Assembly (NCBI GenBank): GCA_038054875.1 | Contig: JBBUJK010000025.1 | Coordinates: forward strand, 1-37,959 | Length of the DNA: 37,959 nt | Reading direction: 5' to 3' | Source: Patescibacteria group bacterium | GTDB taxonomy: Bacteria > Patescibacteriota > Patescibacteriia > 2-12-FULL-57-11 | Shown: positions 883 to 35,119 of the stretch, piece after piece | Numbering within the stretch: the stretch's first letter is position 1 | Layout of the letters: each line of letters begins with the position of its first letter | Program-made: the position numbers and the translations under genes | The notes under the pieces: model-generated | Told to the model about the DNA's origin: nothing | The model's input: the letters and a program-made list of their open reading frames with translations, nothing else | Database searches by the model: none

Positions 883-1350
883 ATGTCACATACGGTAGAG
901 ATTGTGCGTCGTGTGCGCGGGGGATTGTCGGATCGTGACGTCCGTCGCGCTGTCGAGCTGACGCTGCGCACTCTGAAGCGCCGGACGCCGCAACATGTAT
1001 CCGTGACCTTTGTGGGTGATGCTGCCATGCGGGCGCTGAACAAGCGCACCCGGAAGATCGACAAGACCACGGACGTGTTGTCCTTTCCTGGGGAAGCCCC
1101 TCGACGCGCTGCGCTTGCTCGGGGAATTGTCATTCCTGGCGAGCCGCATTTTTTCGGCGACGTGGTGATCTCGCTGCCGTATGCGCGGCGCGACGCCACG
1201 CAGCTCGACATCACGCTGCAACACGAACTGTTCGACCTGCTCGTGCACGGCTTGCTGCATTGCGCCGGGCATGATCATGTAAAACCAGCCGACGCGCGCC
1301 GCATGTTCCGTCTTCAGGAATCCCTTGTTTCCCGCCTATGTTCTCGTTGA
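883..1350 (+). CDS. ybeY: rRNA maturation endoribonuclease YbeY
   Basis: TDVLSF, GDVVIS and HGLLHCAGHDH zinc motif. Confidence 0.95.
   Translation: MSHTVEIVRRVRGGLSDRDVRRAVELTLRTLKRRTPQHVSVTFVGDAAMRALNKRTRKIDKTTDVLSFPGEAPRRAALARGIVIPGEPHFFGDVVISLPYARRDATQLDITLQHELFDLLVHGLLHCAGHDHVKPADARRMFRLQESLVSRLCSR
1096..1129. repeat. Intragenic palindromic element in ybeY
   Basis: GCCCCTCGACGCG-ctgcgctt-GCTCGGGGAATTG; both 13-nt arms are identical to those at 7728-7753 in pyk. Confidence 0.75.
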
Positions 1351-1709
1351 AGACCCTGGGGAAAAGTTTGTCCTATGCCGGTCGCGGCATTGCTTTCGTT
1401 GCAAAAACCGAGCACAGTTTTCGGGTCCAGATCACCCTCGCGGTCCTGGCCGTGCTCCTTGGCCTGTGGCTCAGGATTCGGGCCCAGGAAATGGTCGTTG
1501 TCTTGCTTGTTGCGACGTTTGTGCTCGTGCTAGAATTGCTGAACAGCGCCGTGGAGCACATGGTCGATTTGTTCAAGCCGCGCCTCTCGCACCAGGTCGA
1601 AGTGGTCAAGAACGCCATGGCCGGTGCGGTACTCGTGGCTGCGCTCTGCGCCGCCGTCGTCGGACTCATCATTTTCGTGCCGTACCTGCAGACCGCGCTC
1701 CGCGGGTAG
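1338..1709 (+). CDS. dgkA: Diacylglycerol/undecaprenol kinase (DgkA family)
   Basis: LELLNSAVEHMVD motif, three TM segments, usual position after ybeY. Confidence 0.9.
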   Translation: MFSLKTLGKSLSYAGRGIAFVAKTEHSFRVQITLAVLAVLLGLWLRIRAQEMVVVLLVATFVLVLELLNSAVEHMVDLFKPRLSHQVEVVKNAMAGAVLVAALCAAVVGLIIFVPYLQTALRG

Positions 1710-1714
1710 TCCCT

Positions 1715-2971
1715 ATGGCCGAGAACTTCATCACCGGACTCGACATCGGCTCCACTGCGGTACGTATCGCGGTTGGTCAGCGCGCTGCCGAGGGCGCCAA
1801 GGCCGGGCTGCACATCATTGGTGCCGCCGAAGTGCCGGCCGAAGGCATCAACAAAGGCGTCGTGACCTCCATCGAGGACGCCGTCTCTTCTGTCTCGGCC
1901 TGCCTGGAGCGCGCCGAGCGCATGGTCGGTTTTGAAATTGAACGCGTCTGGGTGGGTATTTCCGGCAGTCATGTGCTGTCCCAGTCTTCGAAGGGCGTGA
2001 TTGGCGTGTCCCGGCCGGACGGAGAAATCCGGGATGAGGACGCCGAGCGCGCCATTGAAGCGGCCCGGACCGTGGCGAGCCCTGCCAACTACGAGATTTT
2101 GCACGTTATTCCAAAGAGTTTCACGGTCGACGGCCAGACCGGCATCAAAGATCCGGTTGGCATGAGCGGCATCCGGCTCGAAGTCGACGCTGAAATCGTC
2201 CAGGGGCTGACCAGCCAGATCAAGAACATCACCAAGTGCGTCTACCGCACCGGCCTCGAAATCGAGGACCTGGTGCTTTCCGTGCTTGCCACGGCCGAAG
2301 CAGTCGTCACCCCTCGCCAGAAGGAGCTGGGCGTCGCCGTCGTGAACATCGGCGGTTCCACCACAAGCGTCATTGTCTTTGAAGAAGGCGACGTGCTGCA
2401 CACGATCGTGCTGCCGATCGGCTCAGAACATGTCACTTCGGACATTGCCATCGGGTTGCGTACGTCGATCGACATCGCCGAATCGCTGAAGATCCGCTAC
2501 GGCACGGCCGTTCCCAAAGAAGTCGGCCGCCGCGACGATGTCGACCTCAAGGAGTTCGGCTCGGCGGACAGTGAAACCGTCAGCCGCAAGTATGTGGCGG
2601 AGATCATCGAAGCCCGCGCCGAAGAAATTTTCGAGAAAGTGGACAAGGAACTGAAGCGCGTCGGTCGCAGCGGACTTCTGCCCGCGGGGATCATCCTGAC
2701 GGGCGGGGGAGCTAAGCTGCCTGGTGTTGTTGAAGTTGCCAAGCGGAAACTCCGCTTGCCGATCCAGATGGGACTGCCGATTGGCGTCACCTCCATCACC
2801 GATCGTGTCAATGACTTGGCGTTTTCCACGGCGATCGGGCTCGTGGTCTGGGGCTCGCACTTCCAGGACACGCGGAAAACAAAGGGCTTTGGCAGGGTGA
2901 TGGGGAATGTCGCGGCCGTTTCAACGCTCACCAAATCGATGAAAAAGTGGTTCGGGCATTTGTTGCCTTGA
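1715..2971 (+). CDS. ftsA: Cell division protein FtsA
   Basis: ITGLDIGSTAV, VNIGGSTT and ILTGGGAKL actin-like ATPase motifs; start moved to ATG 1715, after the dgkA stop. Confidence 0.97.
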   Translation: MAENFITGLDIGSTAVRIAVGQRAAEGAKAGLHIIGAAEVPAEGINKGVVTSIEDAVSSVSACLERAERMVGFEIERVWVGISGSHVLSQSSKGVIGVSRPDGEIRDEDAERAIEAARTVASPANYEILHVIPKSFTVDGQTGIKDPVGMSGIRLEVDAEIVQGLTSQIKNITKCVYRTGLEIEDLVLSVLATAEAVVTPRQKELGVAVVNIGGSTTSVIVFEEGDVLHTIVLPIGSEHVTSDIAIGLRTSIDIAESLKIRYGTAVPKEVGRRDDVDLKEFGSADSETVSRKYVAEIIEARAEEIFEKVDKELKRVGRSGLLPAGIILTGGGAKLPGVVEVAKRKLRLPIQMGLPIGVTSITDRVNDLAFSTAIGLVVWGSHFQDTRKTKGFGRVMGNVAAVSTLTKSMKKWFGHLLP

Positions 2972-3089
2972 ACGCTGCTTGACGGCGTCTGATATACGCT
3001 CGTACAGTATGGGCGTCGGGAGGAAAAACCGCAGAAGAGAGGCGAAAATCGAACACAAATAGTGTTCAATCATCGTTGCGCTTCCAGGT

Positions 3090-4400
3090 ATGCCTGAGGT
3101 GAAACCAGACATCGAAACATTCGCCAAGATCAAAGTGGTTGGCGTTGGCGGTTCCGGCGGCAGTGCCGTCAATCGCATGATCGCCTCCAAGATCAAAGGC
3201 GTGGAGTTCGTCGCCATCAACACCGACGTCCAGGCGCTGCACTACAACCATGCGCCGGTGAAGTTGCATATTGGCAAAACCGTCACGCGCGGGCTTGGCG
3301 CCGGCATGGATCCGGAGTTGGGGCGCAAAGCCGCGGAAGAAAGCCAGAACGAAATCCGCGAGCTCTTGAAGGGCGCGGACATGGTGTTCATCACCTGCGG
3401 GCTGGGCGGCGGCACGGGTTCTGGTGCAGGTCCGTTCGTGGCCGAGATCGCCCGCGACATGGGCGCACTCACGGTCGCGGTGGTCACCAAACCGTTTGCT
3501 TTCGAAGGCGCGCAGCGCAGGGAAATCGCCGACCAGGCCTACAACGACCTGGCCGAGCGCGTCGACACCATCATCACGATTCCGAACGACCGGGTGCTGC
3601 AGATTATCGACAAGAAGACGTCGCTGTTGGACGCCTTCCAAATTGTAGATGACGTGCTGCGTCAGGGCGTGCAGGGCATTTCTGAATTGATCACAGTGCC
3701 GGGCATCATCAACGTCGACTTTGCGGACGTCAAAGCCATCATGTCCTCCCAGGGCACGGCGCTCATGGGCATCGGACATGGCAGCGGGGAGACCCGCGCC
3801 GTTGACGCCGCCAAGTCCGCCGTGGATTCACCGCTCCTTGAAGTGTCGATCGACGGTGCACGCGGCATCCTCTTCTTGATCACCGGCGGCCCAAGCATGG
3901 GCATGCACGAAGTTTCCGAGGCCGCGAAGATCATCACCGGCTCGGCTGATCCGGGCGCCAAGGTCATTTTCGGCGCCGTGATCGACGAATCGCTCAAAGA
4001 AGACATGCGCATCACGGTCATTGCCACGGGTTTTGAAGACAAGCCCCGCGTGTCGACCCCAAGCATCAAAACCGGCGTTGCTGGCGGCACCTACATGCCG
4101 ACGAATTTCATGAAGGCCAAAGATATTGCCCCGGCACCGCTTGCCGCGAGCGATGGGCGCGCCAGCAGCATGTTTACGGCTTCGGCATACCGGGCGCAGC
4201 AACAGGCGCCACAACCGCAGCAGGCGCCGCCCCCTCTGCAAAGCCCCGCACCAGAACCCGAACCCACGCCGCAGGAAGAGCGCCAGTTCAGCTCCAAGAA
4301 GCTGGTCGAAGAGCGCACGGCATTCACGAGCAAGGGTGCCGACGGCTCAGACGAGGAAGATTTGGAAATACCCGCGTTCATCAGGAAGAAGATGATGTAA
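3090..4400 (+). CDS. ftsZ: Cell division protein FtsZ
   Basis: GLGGGTGSG tubulin signature, NVDFAD, C-terminal [10 protein letters not shown]. Confidence 0.99.
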
Positions 4401-4409
4401 ACCCAGCTG

Positions 4410-4437
4410 CCCCGCCGTTACGAACGGCGGGGTTTTT
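4410..4437 (+). terminator. Intrinsic terminator after ftsZ
   Basis: CCCCGCCGTT-ACG-AACGGCGGGG followed by TTTTT. Confidence 0.85.
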
Positions 4438-4573
4438 GGTACAGAGCAACGACCGCGCTGCTTGCCTCTTTCCTGTTGTCGTAGTATGTTTTTGCGTTGG
4501 TGAAGCAAAAAAGAGAGAAATTGCTCACCAGACCGTGTGCGGAGGTACCGTACACGTGCAAAAGAGGAAAATC

Positions 4574-5188
4574 ATGCACTTTGCAGACGATTGGCCGGGC
4601 GGCCTGCCCGTCGTTCTTCTCGACCTTTCTGACGAAGTTCCAGAAAGGTTCTACCTGTGCTGCGTCGGACGGGTCATCCGTTCAGGCGACGAACGGGCGA
4701 CCGAGGTCGCTGTCGAAAGGATGTCCAGGAAGGAATCCCGCCAGGCTCTTTTGGGTCTTGCCGGGTTCCTCGCTGAGTTGATCGACCATGGCGGTTGCAC
4801 AGCCCAGAATGAAGAGGGGCCCCGCGCCTTGATTGCCGCATTGGCGGTTGCCGAGGCACGTGACGACCTGGCCAGCATGGAATCGCTCTTGCACACGGCG
4901 GTCAAGCAAAATCCTGTGCTCAGAGAAGCCCTTTCTCGGCTGCGGTGTGAGGTGGACGACGCGATCACCCTGACGGAGGAGCGCATCGCGTATCGAGGGG
5001 TGAGTGAGTCCATGATGACCCTGATCACGGGAGCAACGCTCGAACAGTTGAGCGAATGTCTCTCGCCGTGGTTGCGGTGGATCGCTCCAATGGCGATCAA
5101 CTCGTGGTGGCTTGCCCCCGTCCATCTCCGCTTGATGGGAGCGACCAGGAGCGTACGCGAGGAGGTCGCTCGCGGTCTCTCGAAGTGA
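4574..5188 (+). CDS. Hypothetical protein
   Basis: AGAGGA SD before ATG 4574; ORF fills the gap between ftsZ and nrdR and has its own terminator; no recognisable motif. Confidence 0.6.
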   Translation: MHFADDWPGGLPVVLLDLSDEVPERFYLCCVGRVIRSGDERATEVAVERMSRKESRQALLGLAGFLAELIDHGGCTAQNEEGPRALIAALAVAEARDDLASMESLLHTAVKQNPVLREALSRLRCEVDDAITLTEERIAYRGVSESMMTLITGATLEQLSECLSPWLRWIAPMAINSWWLAPVHLRLMGATRSVREEVARGLSK

Positions 5189-5207
5189 GACTACCGAGAG
5201 GTCGGTC

Positions 5208-5240
5208 GGGGCTGTGACGTGACGTCGCAGCCTCTTTTTT
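5208..5240 (+). terminator. Intrinsic terminator
   Basis: GGGGCTGTGACG...CGTCGCAGCCTC hairpin followed by T6. Confidence 0.75.
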
Positions 5241-5294
5241 ATGTCGATCGTTCTGTTTTTTGAGGGCACATGCATGCTACACTGGAACGGCATT

Positions 5295-5813
5295 ATGCAC
5301 TGTCCGGTCTGCAATTCCGCGGAAACCAAGGTCGTTGATTCCCGCATGTCCGGGGATGGCATGAACATCCGCCGGCGGCGCGAATGCGAACGCTGCGGCC
5401 ATCGTTTTTCGACGTTGGAGTCATTGGAAATTCTGGAGCTTGCGGTCGTGAAGCGCGACGGCAGCCGCCAGCCGTACAGCCGCGAGAAGCTCGAGGCCGG
5501 CCTGCGCCGGGCGCTCGAGAAGCGGCCGATCACCGCCGACGACTTCCACAAGCTCGTGAACCTGATCGAGCGCGACATCCAAAAACTCAAGCGCGACGAG
5601 GTCACGAGCAAGGAGATCGGCGAGATTGTCATGCATCGGCTGCAGCAGTTCGACAAGATCGCCTACATCCGGTTTGCCTCGGTCTACCGTTCCTTTGAAG
5701 ACGTGAAGACGTTTGAGCGTGAATTGAAACGGCTGATGGCACCCGCTCGCCCTGAGCGGAAGTCGAAGGGCAAGGGTCGCGCCGCCAAGAAGAAACGTCC
5801 GTATGCGCGTTGA
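5295..5813 (+). CDS. nrdR: Transcriptional repressor NrdR
   Basis: MHCPVC, VVDSR, IRRRREC..C zinc ribbon, ATP cone, AYIRFASVY. Confidence 0.97.
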   Translation: MHCPVCNSAETKVVDSRMSGDGMNIRRRRECERCGHRFSTLESLEILELAVVKRDGSRQPYSREKLEAGLRRALEKRPITADDFHKLVNLIERDIQKLKRDEVTSKEIGEIVMHRLQQFDKIAYIRFASVYRSFEDVKTFERELKRLMAPARPERKSKGKGRAAKKKRPYAR

Positions 5814-6084
5814 TCGCCAGAACACGCTCGAGGACAAGCTCGAGGAGATTCTCAAAAGCTCCCAAGCCGCGCAAAAGGCCGCCGAGTCCGCCAACGGCTA
5901 TCTGTTTTGGATGAACGTCGGTTTTTACGCGCGCATCGTCGTGCAGATTGCCATGATCGTCGGGTTCGTCATCTTCGGCTGGTACATCGTGGGCGAAGTG
6001 AGAAAACTTTCGAAACAGATTCCGCAGTACATCGCGAACATCAACATCCCGATCGACGTTTCCGTCAACCTTCCCACACCCTAA
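5803..6084 (+). CDS. Small single-TM hypothetical protein
   Basis: Overlaps the nrdR stop and ends 1 nt before the htrA start; central hydrophobic segment. Confidence 0.7.
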   Translation: MRVDRQNTLEDKLEEILKSSQAAQKAAESANGYLFWMNVGFYARIVVQIAMIVGFVIFGWYIVGEVRKLSKQIPQYIANINIPIDVSVNLPTP

Positions 6085-6085
6085 T

Positions 6086-7327
6086 ATGTTCCAGGACCGT
6101 CCTGTCCGCGTTGCAATCATCACTGCTGTCATCGTCTCCTTTTTTGTGGGGGGCGTGATGGGCGGCGCCACCGGGGCCATCGTGGCTTCACGCCCCGATT
6201 TCCTGGCCGGACCGCTTCTGGCGCGTCTGGGTGGTCGTTTGCCTGCACCACCAGAAAATCCAAAACTCACCGTCATCGAAGAGTCGGAAACCATTGCCGT
6301 GGTCGACAAGGTGAATCCGGCGGTCGTTTCCATTGTCATCAGCCGCAACGTGGCACAGCCAGGCGCGGACTTTCAGCCGTTCCCGTTCGACGACTTTTTT
6401 GGCACGTTACAACCGCCGTCGGCGCCGGATGTGCCAAGCACCGGCGAGCCGCAGATGCGCGTGGTGGGCGGCGGCTCCGGATTTCTCGTTTCTTCGGACG
6501 GCATGATTGTGACGAACAAGCACGTCGTGGATGGCACGGATGCGACGTATGAAGTCGTGCTTTCCGACGGTCGGAAGTTTCCCGGCAAAGTCCTGGCGCG
6601 TGATCCGCTCTTGGACCTGGCCATCGTCAAAATCGAGGGCACGGATTTTCCCACGCTCGCGCTCGGCGACTCGGATGCGCTTAAGGTCGGACAGACGGTT
6701 GTCGCGGTCGGCAACGCGTTCTCCGAGCTTGCGAACACCGTCACCAAAGGCATCATCTCCGGCATCAACCGGCGCATTGTGGCCGGCGGGATCGGGGGGA
6801 GCGAAGTGATCGAGGAAGCAATTCAGACAGACGCCGCCATCAATCCTGGTAATTCCGGTGGACCGCTCGTGAATCTGGCTGGAGAAGTCATCGGGGTCAA
6901 CGTCGCCGTGAACCGCGACGCGCAAGGCGTGGGCTTTGCCATCCCGATCAACGCCGCCAAAGACGTCATCACCTCGGTGCGCGAGAATGGTCGCATTGTT
7001 CGCCCTTGGATTGGCGTGCGCTACATCCTTATTACGCCCGAGTTCGTCAAAGCCAAGAATCTCACGGTCAACCACGGCGCGCTCGTGGTGCGCGGTGACA
7101 CGCCTACCGACCTCGCTGTTATTCCAGGCAGCCCGGCAGATACGGCCGGCATCAAAGAGAACGACATTATTTTGTCCGTCGACGGCAAGGACATCACCGA
7201 GGCGCATTCCTTGGCCGTGCGTATTCGCGGAAAAAAATCCGGCGATCAGGTAACACTCATCGTTTCTTCCCAAGGTAAAGAACGCCCGGTGGTATTGACC
7301 CTCGGCGAACTCAAGTCACAAGAATAA
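6086..7327 (+). CDS. htrA: HtrA/DegP-family serine protease with PDZ domain
   Basis: N-terminal TM; TNKHVV, DLAIVKI and AINPGNSGGPL give an intact triad; C-terminal PDZ. Confidence 0.93.
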   Translation: MFQDRPVRVAIITAVIVSFFVGGVMGGATGAIVASRPDFLAGPLLARLGGRLPAPPENPKLTVIEESETIAVVDKVNPAVVSIVISRNVAQPGADFQPFPFDDFFGTLQPPSAPDVPSTGEPQMRVVGGGSGFLVSSDGMIVTNKHVVDGTDATYEVVLSDGRKFPGKVLARDPLLDLAIVKIEGTDFPTLALGDSDALKVGQTVVAVGNAFSELANTVTKGIISGINRRIVAGGIGGSEVIEEAIQTDAAINPGNSGGPLVNLAGEVIGVNVAVNRDAQGVGFAIPINAAKDVITSVRENGRIVRPWIGVRYILITPEFVKAKNLTVNHGALVVRGDTPTDLAVIPGSPADTAGIKENDIILSVDGKDITEAHSLAVRIRGKKSGDQVTLIVSSQGKERPVVLTLGELKSQE

Positions 7328-7331
7328 GAAT

Positions 7332-7420
7332 GTCATCCTGAACGGCAGTGAAGGATCCTGCCAGTTCTTGCAAGAACCCTAATAAGACACGGAGAGATTC
7401 TTCGCTCCGCTCAGAATGAC
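7332..7420. repeat. Inverted doublet of GTCAT-tagged REP-like palindromes
   Basis: GTCATCCTGAACGGCAGTGAAGGATC (7332-7357) and, on the minus strand, GTCATTCTGAGCGGAGCGAAGAATC (7396-7420); 14-bp palindrome GTTCTTGCAAGAAC between them. Confidence 0.85.
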
Positions 7421-7429
7421 AATGCTCAT

Positions 7430-8887
7430 ATGAAACGCACCAAGATTGTTTGTACCATCGGCCCGGCCAGCAAAAAGCCGGCCATGCTCGAGAAGATGAT
7501 CAAGGCGGGCATGAACATGGCGCGGCTCAACTTCAGCCACGGCACGCACGCCGACCATGCGCGGCTGATGAAGCGCGTGCTGCAGGCCGCCAAAAAGGCG
7601 GGGACAACGGTCGCCATTCTCCAGGACCTCCAGGGTCCGAAGATCCGGGTGGGCGACTTGTCCAAGGAAGGCGTAAAGCTCGTGAACGGCAGCGAGGTGA
7701 TTTTTACGACGGCTTCTGTTCAAGGTCGCCCCTCGACGCGGCTCGGGGAATTGAGAATTCCGGTCGGCTACAAAAAGCTGCATCAGGATGTGAAGCCCGG
7801 TGATCGGCTGCTCTTGGACGACGGTCTGCTTGAAGTCATGGTCCAGAAGGTCAGCGGGCGCGATATTGTCTGCCATGTGGTGACCGGCGGCATGCTGACC
7901 TCGCACAAAGGCATGAACTTCCCCACGGCGACGCTGTCCATCCCTGCTCTGACCCCCAAAGACAAGGCCGACGTGGCCTTTGGCGTGCGCGCCGGCGTCG
8001 ACTACGTCGCGCTGTCCTTTGTGCGCTCGGCCAAGGACGTCATGCAGCTGCGTGCCCTGATCGCCAAGGAAGAAAAGAAGGCCCGCATCAAGCGCGACGC
8101 GCCGATCATGATCATTTCCAAGATCGAAAAGCCCCAGGCGCTCGATAACTTCGACGAAATTCTCGACGCCTCCGACGCCATCATGGTGGCGCGCGGCGAC
8201 CTGGGCGTTGAAACCCCGGCCGCGGACGTGCCGGTCCATCAGAAGCGCATGATCGAGAAGTGCCTGACGGCCGGAAAGCCCGTGATCGTGGCCACCCAGA
8301 TGCTCGACTCCATGATTAGGAATCCGCGCCCGACGCGCGCCGAAGTTTCGGATATCGCCAATGCCGTCATCGACCATACCGACGCCGTGATGCTGTCCGG
8401 CGAAACCGCCACCGGCGCCTTCCCGCTCCAGGCGGTGAAGATCATGGCCGAGACGGCCGAGGAAACCGAGAAGTCCCGCTACGACGACGTGCGCATCGAC
8501 ATCGTCGGCGTGGAGCCGACCGAGGCCCGGGAAGCGATCTCGAAGAGTGCCGCAGTCATGGCCCGCATGACGCCGGCCTGCGCGATTCTCTCCGTCTCCG
8601 TCTCCGGCCGCATGGGCCGCCGCCTCAGTCGCTTCCGCCCGGAAATCCCGATCGTGGTCGGCGCCTTCAGCCCCCGCGTCGCCCGGCAGCTGGCCCTCTC
8701 CTGGGGCGTGACGCCGATCCTGCTCACGCCAACCAAGGACGCGACCCGCGCCAAGAAGCAGCTTCTGAAAGAAGCCATGAAGCGCAAGCTCTGCAAAAAG
8801 GGGAATGACCTGTTGTTCGTGATGGGCTCGGTCGAGCGCGACGCCATGGGTCCGAACCGGTTGTCGCTGGAATTGTTCCGGGGGTAG
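7430..8887 (+). CDS. pyk: Pyruvate kinase
   Basis: RTKIVCTIGP, ARLNFSHG, DLQGPKIR, MVARGDLG, ATQMLDSM, MLSGETA. Confidence 0.98.
   Translation: MKRTKIVCTIGPASKKPAMLEKMIKAGMNMARLNFSHGTHADHARLMKRVLQAAKKAGTTVAILQDLQGPKIRVGDLSKEGVKLVNGSEVIFTTASVQGRPSTRLGELRIPVGYKKLHQDVKPGDRLLLDDGLLEVMVQKVSGRDIVCHVVTGGMLTSHKGMNFPTATLSIPALTPKDKADVAFGVRAGVDYVALSFVRSAKDVMQLRALIAKEEKKARIKRDAPIMIISKIEKPQALDNFDEILDASDAIMVARGDLGVETPAADVPVHQKRMIEKCLTAGKPVIVATQMLDSMIRNPRPTRAEVSDIANAVIDHTDAVMLSGETATGAFPLQAVKIMAETAEETEKSRYDDVRIDIVGVEPTEAREAISKSAAVMARMTPACAILSVSVSGRMGRRLSRFRPEIPIVVGAFSPRVARQLALSWGVTPILLTPTKDATRAKKQLLKEAMKRKLCKKGNDLLFVMGSVERDAMGPNRLSLELFRG
7728..7753. repeat. Intragenic palindromic element in pyk
   Basis: GCCCCTCGACGCG-GCTCGGGGAATTG, read as RPSTRLGEL; matches the ybeY element. 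Confidence 0.75.
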
Positions 8888-23489: not shown

Positions 23490-23598
23490 GGATGATCGGG
23501 GATTTCTCACCCTGCGAGGGTTCGAAATGACAGGTGGGTGTGCCACGCGGCTCCTTTGGATGACAAGTGTTTGTCATCTCGAACGGTAGTGAGAGATC
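23490..23598. repeat. GTCAT-tagged palindrome cluster, left flank of the GIY-YIG gene
   Basis: 23490-23564 is an imperfect direct repeat of 23948-24020; an inverted unit GTCATCTCGAACGGTAGTGAGAGATC lies at 23573-23598. Confidence 0.88.
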
Positions 23599-23603
23599 TC
23601 CGA

Positions 23604-23903
23604 TCACCCAACAAGATCAGTCATATCAAGAAGTCCGGGATTGGTGGATCGGATTAAGGATAACTTCTTCTCTCTGCGATACCTCTTGATCTGTTTTTCC
23701 CGCTCAAGCGCATCGCGAACGTCGGTGAATTTCTCCACGTAGAGGAGATGCGTGCAGCCGTACCTTGCCGTAAAACCGCCTCGGTGTGCCGAGCGATGCT
23801 GATTAATTCGCCCTTGTAGATTTCCGGTGGCACCGACGTAGTAGGTCGTGCGCCGCGGGTTCGACAGGATGTACACCCAGTAGTTGCGGTCGTGCATACC
23901 CAT
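23604..23903 (-). CDS. Small stand-alone GIY-YIG nuclease
   Basis: YWVYIL...YYVGAT.NL..R..QH, FTARYG, A..REKQIK, LI...NP. Confidence 0.92.
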   Translation of the reverse strand: MGMHDRNYWVYILSNPRRTTYYVGATGNLQGRINQHRSAHRGGFTARYGCTHLLYVEKFTDVRDALEREKQIKRYRREKKLSLIRSTNPGLLDMTDLVG

Positions 23904-23947: not shown

Positions 23948-24020
23948 GGATGATCGGGGATTTCTCACCCCGCGGGGGTTCGAAATGACATGGCTTGGCC
24001 ATGCGGCTCCTTGGGATGAC
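23948..24020. repeat. GTCAT-tagged palindrome unit, right flank of the GIY-YIG gene
   Basis: First 43 nt match 23490-23532 with two mutually compensatory substitutions. Confidence 0.88.
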
Positions 24021-35096: not shown

Positions 35097-35119
35097 GCCC
35101 TTCGACTACCGCTCAGGGC
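35097..35119. repeat. Single GA/GA-type palindrome
   Basis: Minus strand GCCCT-GA-GCGGTAGTC-GA-AGGGC; same architecture as the 7332 and 23573 units and the intragenic copies. Confidence 0.65.

Follow-up and report, generated by a model that had tools for sequence, protein, structure and literature searches.

Short repeat module dispersed between and inside genes of a Patescibacteria genome, with in-frame copies in ybeY and pyk

The genes ybeY and pyk (pyruvate kinase) of a Patescibacteria genome each contain, in frame, a single copy of a short DNA module that is dispersed over the same genome, both between and inside genes. Both genes are located in the window, i.e. the whole stretch of 37,959 nucleotides (nt) analysed here, which is one contig (C25) of an 889,201-base genome (G000; 45 contigs, 60% G+C, completeness 79.7%). 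With a probability of roughly 60%, the module is a repeat resembling the repetitive extragenic palindromic (REP) sequences that has spread between and inside genes and would be moved through nicking by a GIY-YIG nuclease. The two host genes and their copies are:

883 to 1350, plus strand: ybeY, host gene of the first copy (open reading frame (ORF) with translation; Pfam YbeY, E = 6e-31).
1096 to 1129, plus strand: long form of the module with shared flanking bases; the core (1097-1124) is CCCCTCGACGCGCTGCGCTTGCTCGGGG, and the stretch codes for APRRAALARGI, amino acids (aa) 72-82 of YbeY.
7430 to 8887, plus strand: pyk, host gene of the second copy (Pfam PK, E = 1.3e-121; also PK_C).
7728 to 7753, plus strand: short form of the module with shared flanks; the core (7729-7748) is CCCCTCGACGCGGCTCGGGG, and the stretch codes for RPSTRLGEL, aa 100-108 of Pyk.

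The two genes share two 13-mers. GCCCCTCGACGCG is found at 1096-1108 in ybeY and at 7728-7740 in pyk, GCTCGGGGAATTG at 1117-1129 and at 7741-7753, respectively. In ybeY, CTGCGCTT (1109-1116) lies between the two, whereas in pyk they adjoin each other directly. The shared strings are translated as ..GEAPRRAALARGIV.. in YbeY and as ..QGRPSTRLGELRI.. in Pyk. Since they are read in different frames, their identity resides at the DNA and not at the protein level. Both the arrangement with the 8-nt inner insert and the difference in frame had been described in an earlier reading of the sequence (below: the original prediction) and are borne out. The pattern CCCCTCGAC-N(0-20)-GCTCRGGG matches the window twice and has no match in any of 100 dinucleotide shuffles. 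When 2 mismatches are allowed, neither 13-mer alone is found above chance (5 matches versus 3.46 expected, and 4 versus 1.72).

The genome-wide scan proposed with the original prediction yields many further copies. CCCYTCGAYN{2,14}CTCRGGG matches G000 at 34 places, 17 per strand, versus 0 for the same pattern read backwards; the narrower pattern first suggested finds 17 copies. The module is 19-30 nt long with loops of 2 to 14 nt. One strand reads CCCY-TCGAY-loop-CTC-RGGG, the other CCCY-GA-GC..TC-GA-RGGG, and the repeat is of the CCCTGAGC..GTCGAAGGG type. Two sub-types can be distinguished, CCCC..GGGG followed by AAT(C) or CAGG and CCCT..AGGG followed by CAGG, and each exists as a short form of 19-21 nt and a long form of 28-30 nt. 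The 20-mer of pyk is present five times without change in the genome, and the ybeY copy differs at 2 positions from a 28-mer that occurs four times. Several copies carry CCA-like tails. A CRISPR-like orphan repeat (CRISPR: clustered regularly interspaced short palindromic repeats) was considered for the pyk copy, which looks like GTCGC...ATTGA, and was dropped; the copies are single or inverted pairs and never form direct arrays.

Six intergenic copies are head-to-head dimers, in which an AT-rich spacer of about 15-25 nt separates the module from an inverted one, CCCGAGC..GTCGAGGG, so that a long hairpin results. These dimers fold better than shuffled sequences (z between -2.0 and -6.9). Single copies do not (z between 0.1 and 1.3, with RNA as well as DNA parameters), in an energy model that gives no credit for tandem G.A pairs. 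The original prediction had seen on the minus strand the architecture CCCC-GA-hairpin-GA-GGGG: the reading is real, but because single copies, those in ybeY and pyk included, fold no better than their shuffles, 'palindrome' is a weak label for them. Rfam searches returned only tmRNA and tRNA families at gathering score in the window, and nothing relevant at E up to 1 on eight module-bearing loci.

Most copies lie inside genes. Twenty of the 34 are found within ORFs supported by a Pfam match, 3 in conserved ORFs without such a match, 6 are the intergenic dimer members and 5 are intergenic single copies. The Pfam-supported hosts comprise RsmH, a Wzy_C protein, DUF2304, a class I aminoacyl-tRNA synthetase, a Fe/Mn superoxide dismutase, a GSDH-like protein, TsaD, YbeY, pyruvate kinase, NrdR, alanine racemase, TruB, three pilins, a tRNA_edit protein, DnaK, Dus, MurD and an alpha/beta hydrolase. 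In 14 of these 20 hosts the CCCYTCGAY strand is the sense strand (phase 0 once, phase 1 seven times, phase 2 six times), and in six it is antisense. None of the three sense frames of this strand contains a stop codon in any of the 34 copies, whereas the antisense frames are open in 18, 31 and 34 copies, respectively. This fits the sense bias among the hosts.

The three pilin genes (Pfam N_methyl; C1:6355-6374, C30:17880-17899 and C30:20480-20499) contain the module in antisense orientation, where it encodes ALSRVEG immediately before the methylation motif FTL(I/V)ELLVV. Since the peptide abuts this motif, it is the module that provides the last residues of the prepilin leader, among them the glycine preceding the presumed cleavage site. 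In the congener G002, one of the pilin copies is shared in a decayed form and one is replaced by unrelated sequence.

A whole genome of the same genus, G002, was aligned at all module sites, and 28 of the 34 sites could be anchored. The module is absent from G002 at 26 of these and kept at only two, in the aminoacyl-tRNA synthetase gene (18 of 19 bases identical) and in one pilin leader (17 of 20). Nineteen aligned sites lie in genes or conserved ORFs, two of them (C19:18036 and C30:12299) in ORFs without a Pfam match, and at all 19 the net indel versus G002 is a multiple of three: +24 nt at six sites (ybeY, rsmH, alr, dus, murD and C18:4485, the latter at a stop codon), +21 nt at four, +15 nt and +9 nt at two each, and +6, +51 (tsaD), -3, -21 (pyk) and 0 nt at one each, the last being the aminoacyl-tRNA synthetase copy common to both genomes. 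Intergenic sites differ from G002 by net 73, 22, -83, 79, 65, 101, 24 and 24 nt. Two dimers absent from G002 are located exactly between the stop or start codons of adjoining genes. Mobility, which the original prediction had proposed for a 'mini-palindrome', is suggested by this presence and absence and was not observed as such.

The insert of tsaD (C20:2144-2171 plus about 40 nt downstream) consists of one full module and a second 3' half, TTCGCTCGGGGAAAG, and stands in place of about 20 nt of different sequence in G002. At C1:11414-11442, a 73-nt insert versus G002 seems to include an imperfect copy of about 30 nt of the neighbouring gene start, placed on the opposite side of the module, a possible long target duplication.

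The two starting copies behave differently among relatives. In ybeY, the DNA alignment with G002 and the second congener, G001, shows a clean 24-nt gap, CCCCTCGACGCGCTGCGCTTGCTC, between GGGGAAG and GGGGA, and the inserted residues are missing from all 26 other rows of a 27-row protein alignment that includes both congeners, as had been expected for an insertion. A similar case is DnaK, whose insert DPSTGSG (7 residues) is found only in G000 among 19 aligned rows. For Pyk the expectation held in part: three family-level orthologues read at the DNA level (L003-L005) have no insert, but G002, the only congener with pyk (89% amino-acid identity), carries a different, longer insert of 51 nt at the same site. 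An imperfect 12-nt duplication surrounds the latter insert, which occurs once in G002 and is not a repeat there. Inserts that differ between G000 and G002 are also found in truB (C29:30889) and in the tail of the DUF2304 gene (C9:23032), where G002 has a pair of TGTCA-headed hairpins. These three sites could be hot spots of insertion, or the insertions could be old and have diverged in the meantime.

The inserts are also present in independent assemblies. The ybeY insert was found in Logan contigs of run X3 (record 9) and run X6 (record 25, another study) with 0 differences and 0 gaps, the pyk insert in a contig of another sample (run X2, record 7) with 0 differences. The inserts thus recur without change in further samples and in another study and are no assembly artefact. 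The same data show, for window positions 7376-7649, a summed contig depth of about 260-517, far above the neighbouring bins in three of four runs; this peak probably derives from a conserved N-terminal pyk segment common to other organisms of the metagenomes.

Structure predictions place both peptides in tolerant regions, as had been proposed. In an AlphaFold2 model of YbeY based on a 26-row alignment (mean predicted local distance difference test score (pLDDT) 93.5), the insert (aa 72-82) is bracketed by strands 65-69 and 89-97; pLDDT is 62 for residues 71-80 and 76 for residues 81-90, and at least 92 in all other blocks. In the Pyk model (16-row alignment, mean pLDDT 87.8), only one segment, residues 98-106 (QGRPSTRLG), falls below 50. 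It is a loop that connects strands 89-93 and 109-112 in what we take to be the B domain. Both insert sites vary in length among relatives, the Pyk site across 20 aligned rows. According to the models, both peptides are in low-confidence loops of otherwise confident folds, and the inserts are predicted to add a few harmless amino acids to surface loops.

The link to a nuclease rests on the surroundings of the GIY-YIG genes. PF01541 has six matches in G000, five small genes and one 629-aa frame, presumably UvrC. On contig C39, a stand-alone GIY-YIG gene (90 aa; PF01541 40.6 bits; PDB 1zg2, UPF0213, E = 1.4e-10) has one module dimer on each side. The other small GIY-YIG genes of G000 are flanked by TGTCA-headed hairpins with the layout stem-GA-inner-GA-stem. 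One of these genes is located in the window:

23607 to 23903, minus strand: stand-alone 99-aa GIY-YIG gene, one of the five small ones (PF01541 60.8 bits).
23490 to 23532, minus strand: TGTCA-headed hairpin repeat next to the gene, reading TGTCATTTCGAACCCTCGCAGGGTGAGAAATCCCCGATCATCC on this strand, with a stem-GA-inner-GA-stem layout like that of the module.
23948 to 23990, minus strand: second copy of this repeat on the other side of the gene, as read from the sequence.
23572 to 23601, plus strand: third TGTCA-headed hairpin, inverted, TGTCATCTCGAACGGTAGTGAGAGATCTCC, just 3' of the GIY-YIG stop codon.

By virtue of the third, inverted hairpin, the GIY-YIG gene of the window lies between inverted and direct copies. 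The hairpins can be aligned with the module, GGATCCTTCGCTACCGCTCAGGATGACA with GA-CCCTTCGACGCGGCTCAGGG-CAGG, and this alignment shows the module strand that is in the orientation of the published NTS repeats, namely CCCY-GA-GC..TC-GA-RGGG, which is antisense to ybeY and pyk. The relation to GIY-YIG-flanking repeats that the original prediction had drawn is thus supported by the dimers around the C39 gene and by the alignment. An NCBIfam search with the five small GIY-YIG proteins returned no family above cut-off. In three genomes of the family, a small GIY-YIG gene is found directly 3' of dnaK (G000 C32:2342-4644, G004 C44 and G006 C51); this gene looks like a long-term resident rather than a recent arrival.

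Stand-alone GIY-YIG nucleases of the Ssn type cut single-stranded DNA (ssDNA) in a strand-specific manner beside hairpin repeats termed NTS or SRM. Copies of these repeats are found on both sides of the nuclease genes and, by the hundreds, elsewhere in the genomes (Chenal et al., 2025, PMC11893778). From the position of the module dimers beside the C39 gene we infer, by analogy with SsnA and NTS, that the module might be moved by such an enzyme. The ybeY and pyk strings are single copies of one dispersed REP-like module. The module would fold in ssDNA, the GIY-YIG nuclease would bind it and nick beside the hairpin, and host replication or repair would copy the module into the nicked or gapped site, helped by short homology at the junctions. 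In the G000 lineage new copies would have been added both intergenically and inside genes. Inside genes, those copies would survive whose net length is a multiple of three and which lie in loops, linkers, tails or leader peptides. Because all frames of the CCCYTCGAY strand are free of stop codons, an intragenic module may persist and lengthen its host protein by between 2 and 17 residues (by 8 in the case of YbeY).

The module counts of relatives are very uneven. Over 31 genomes, which are not independent of each other, 13 have no copy, G029 has 61, G017 has 18 and the two congeners G002 and G001 have 6 and 3, compared with the 34 in G000. Judged by these sequences, the family has expanded in the G000 lineage. 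The 20-nt core CCCYGAGCNNNGTCGARGGG is found in at least 120 stretches from many phyla; among the matches listed are Acidobacteriota, Bacteroidota, Cyanobacteria, Chloroflexota, Planctomycetota, Spirochaetota, Proteobacteria, Actinomycetota and Patescibacteria. Among these listed matches, 127 copies have a 5' head of the type G-Y-Y-Y-R (GCCTG, TGTCA, GTTCG and similar) and mostly a GNA loop, and TGTCA heads are present on some of those from other phyla.

Several observations weigh against movement by a GIY-YIG nuclease. Only 2 of the 34 copies adjoin a GIY-YIG gene. Small GIY-YIG genes are present in 29 of the 31 relatives with no clear relation to the module count, and G027 has 10 such genes and 0 modules. 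A GIY-YIG match within the locus was found for 1 of the 120 listed core-bearing loci of other phyla, a figure which, for a dispersed repeat, says nothing either way. The published SRM pattern, HGTCWYN(0-2)YYVSBRHN(0-5)WNVSBRGN(0-2)RNCYNB, overlaps 0 of the 34 modules and has 5 matches in G000 versus 3 to 11 in 10 shuffles. Single copies, as described above, do not fold better than shuffled sequences. A constant target duplication was not found at the aligned junctions. Neither an empty-site allele nor a joint skipping the module was found in the Logan contigs, which drop rare variants, so that no current movement is seen. Finally, GIY-YIG nucleases are hydrolytic, and therefore we know of no enzyme for the joining step.

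Some of these points would suit a mobile repeat without any dedicated nuclease, which spreads by template-switching repair guided by microhomology or by gene conversion with existing copies as donors. Module counts that do not track GIY-YIG gene counts are in line with it, as are the different inserts of G000 and G002 at pyk, truB and the DUF2304 tail and the 12-nt imperfect duplication around the G002 pyk insert. Furthermore, junction homologies are found at ybeY (GGGGAAG-..-GGGGAAT; empty site of G001: GGGGAAG-GGGAG), at C18:4485 (TAA-..-TAA) and at C28:1760 (CAGG-..-CAGG). However, these homologies, which may be due to chance, comprise 2 to 6 nt in diverged alignments, and the dimers flanking the GIY-YIG gene together with the published association of the Ssn repeats point to a cognate enzyme. 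We consider repair without a nuclease unlikely, if a serious contender. Another idea goes further: In these reduced genomes the module would be an Ssn-type, actively expanding peptide-inserting element that spreads by nuclease nicking and subsequent microhomology-templated repair instead of transposition, repeatedly hits the same permissive loops (pyk, truB, the DUF2304 tail) and is even used as coding sequence for pilin leaders. This proposal is speculative and in our opinion rather improbable. If it were true, the element would continually supply essential proteins with new loop sequence.

Movement by an IS200/IS605-type tyrosine transposase, the REP-associated tyrosine transposase (RAYT) of classical REPs, would account for the resemblance of the module to REP singletons and head-to-head dimers, and a RAYT gene might be missing from an assembly that is 79.7% complete. 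In this incomplete genome PF01797 (Y1_Tnp) had no match, whereas the same search was positive in 6 of 14 control genomes; the GTAG tag is absent from the module, and CGTC-type REPs, too, were found not to flank any transposase gene (PMC3733652). Thus, a RAYT is a highly unlikely agent. That nothing was inserted at all, the loops being ancestral sequence lost in relatives or GC-rich hypervariable loops that converged by chance, would agree with the variable length of both loops and with the extra residues of G002 at the pyk site. It is contradicted by the YbeY and DnaK inserts, which are missing from all outgroups, and hardly compatible with identical 20- and 28-mers in unrelated genes and different frames or with 34 copies versus 0 in the control, and deserves very little credence. 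The same holds for a selected protein motif, i.e. a functional shared peptide, or an artefact of assembly or binning. Copies in phase 2 do yield similar peptides (xPST..G) in several proteins, but the DNA is shared while all three frames and either strand are used for coding, which contradicts a motif, and the peptides are predicted to be disordered or of low confidence. An artefact is opposed by the identical inserts in independent contigs. Nuclease-assisted spread of a REP-like repeat is, accordingly, the reading we prefer.

Besides the copies in ybeY and pyk, the window contains two others:

5750 to 5770, minus strand: third copy, CCCTTCGACTTCCGCTCAGGG, antisense in the C-terminal tail of nrdR (5241-5813, plus strand).
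35098 to 35118, plus strand: intergenic single copy, CCCTTCGACTACCGCTCAGGG, immediately 5' of a TTGACA promoter-like hexamer.

The module in nrdR is located beyond the Pfam domains of the protein (Zn_ribbon_NrdR and ATP-cone), which extend to aa 154, and the net indel versus G002 is 15 nt. The intergenic copy is missing from G002 (net indel 24 nt).

Short repeats inside genes have been published before; what is new here is the host phylum and an unusually high intragenic share. The module extends both the intragenic CGTC-type REPs and the hairpin repeats linked to Ssn GIY-YIG nucleases to ultra-small bacteria of the candidate phyla radiation (CPR), as a mostly intragenic repeat whose hosts include dnaK, murD, tsaD and an aminoacyl-tRNA synthetase gene. 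A near-isogenic congener provides clean filled and empty sites, which makes G000 a convenient natural data set for the copying of repeats for which no transposase is known. In practice, the inserts produce lineage-specific indels in marker genes and, because the 20-nt core occurs in many phyla, spurious nucleotide matches across phyla. Among the papers listed by a literature search, none joins Patescibacteria or CPR with palindromic or REP elements; searches with the core 15-mer, the complement of this string and two peptide readings retrieved nothing relevant, and those combining GIY-YIG, hairpin repeats and intergenic location gave mostly organelle and phage papers, none of them relevant.

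The original prediction had likened the module to the Rickettsia palindromic elements (RPEs). This comparison is apt with respect to in-frame insertions into protein-coding genes that are absent from orthologues, and truB is a host in both cases. The RPE-1 type, reportedly described in 2000 by Ogata and co-workers, is said to be selfish palindromic DNA with a long palindromic fold, inserted in frame in housekeeping genes with its peptides at permissive surface sites, and to measure about 100-150 bp. In size the comparison fails: modules comprise 19-30 nt, with net intragenic inserts of 6 to 51 nt, and are 5 to 7 times shorter than the classical RPE-1; moreover, single modules are not stable hairpins by nearest-neighbour models. 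With REPs, bacterial interspersed mosaic elements (BIMEs) and bacterial MITEs (miniature transposable elements of the inverted-repeat type) the module has in common that it is short and dispersed, single or in inverted dimers, and often right at gene ends. It differs from the REP/RAYT system, which has a GTAG tag and a Y1 transposase, by lacking both this tag and, in the 79.7% complete genome, a PF01797 match, and from MITEs by the lack of constant target-site duplications and of terminal inverted repeats around a larger body.

Two published groups are closer. The CGTC-tagged REP superfamily, which includes Neisseria dRS3 and RPE-4 and RPE-6 of Rickettsia conorii, consists of short stem-loops (20-40 bp) with an unpaired 5' tag and a CCA-like tail, mostly as head-to-head dimers plus singletons, without an associated transposase; most are intergenic, and some lie inside known genes, among them tRNA synthetase and truB genes (Di Nocera, De Gregorio and Rocco, 2013, PMC3733652). 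The module resembles them in its short length and stem-loop layout, the six head-to-head dimers, CCA-like tails, the lack of a PF01797 match and its intragenic members, for which an aminoacyl-tRNA synthetase gene and truB are again among the hosts. In contrast, their stem of 8-9 bp begins with two A-T pairs and encloses a loop of 4-5 nt, whereas the module has CCCY/RGGG and GA..GA with loops of 2 to 14 nt. Their tag is CGTC (variants TGTC and CCTC), while most module copies have, on the NTS-like strand, CCTG, GATT or a variable head. They are mostly intergenic as opposed to 20 of 34 intragenic copies here, and Patescibacteria is not among the five phyla listed for them. The Ssn system, whose nucleases are defined by the domain cd10448, shares with the module a stand-alone GIY-YIG gene of about 90-100 aa with a dispersed hairpin repeat on both sides (C39 here), a C after the palindrome on the NTS-like strand (14 of 17 strict CCCC-type copies) and a copy number that is very uneven between related species. 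How its repeats spread is reported as unknown and compared with IS200/IS605; the main text contains neither 'intragenic' nor 'Patescibacteria', and where it speaks of 'coding', which it does twice, intragenic repeats are not meant (PMC11893778). Taken together, the module has the organisation of the CGTC-REP and Ssn-repeat kind but not its defining tag or stem, and it is there that it is best filed.

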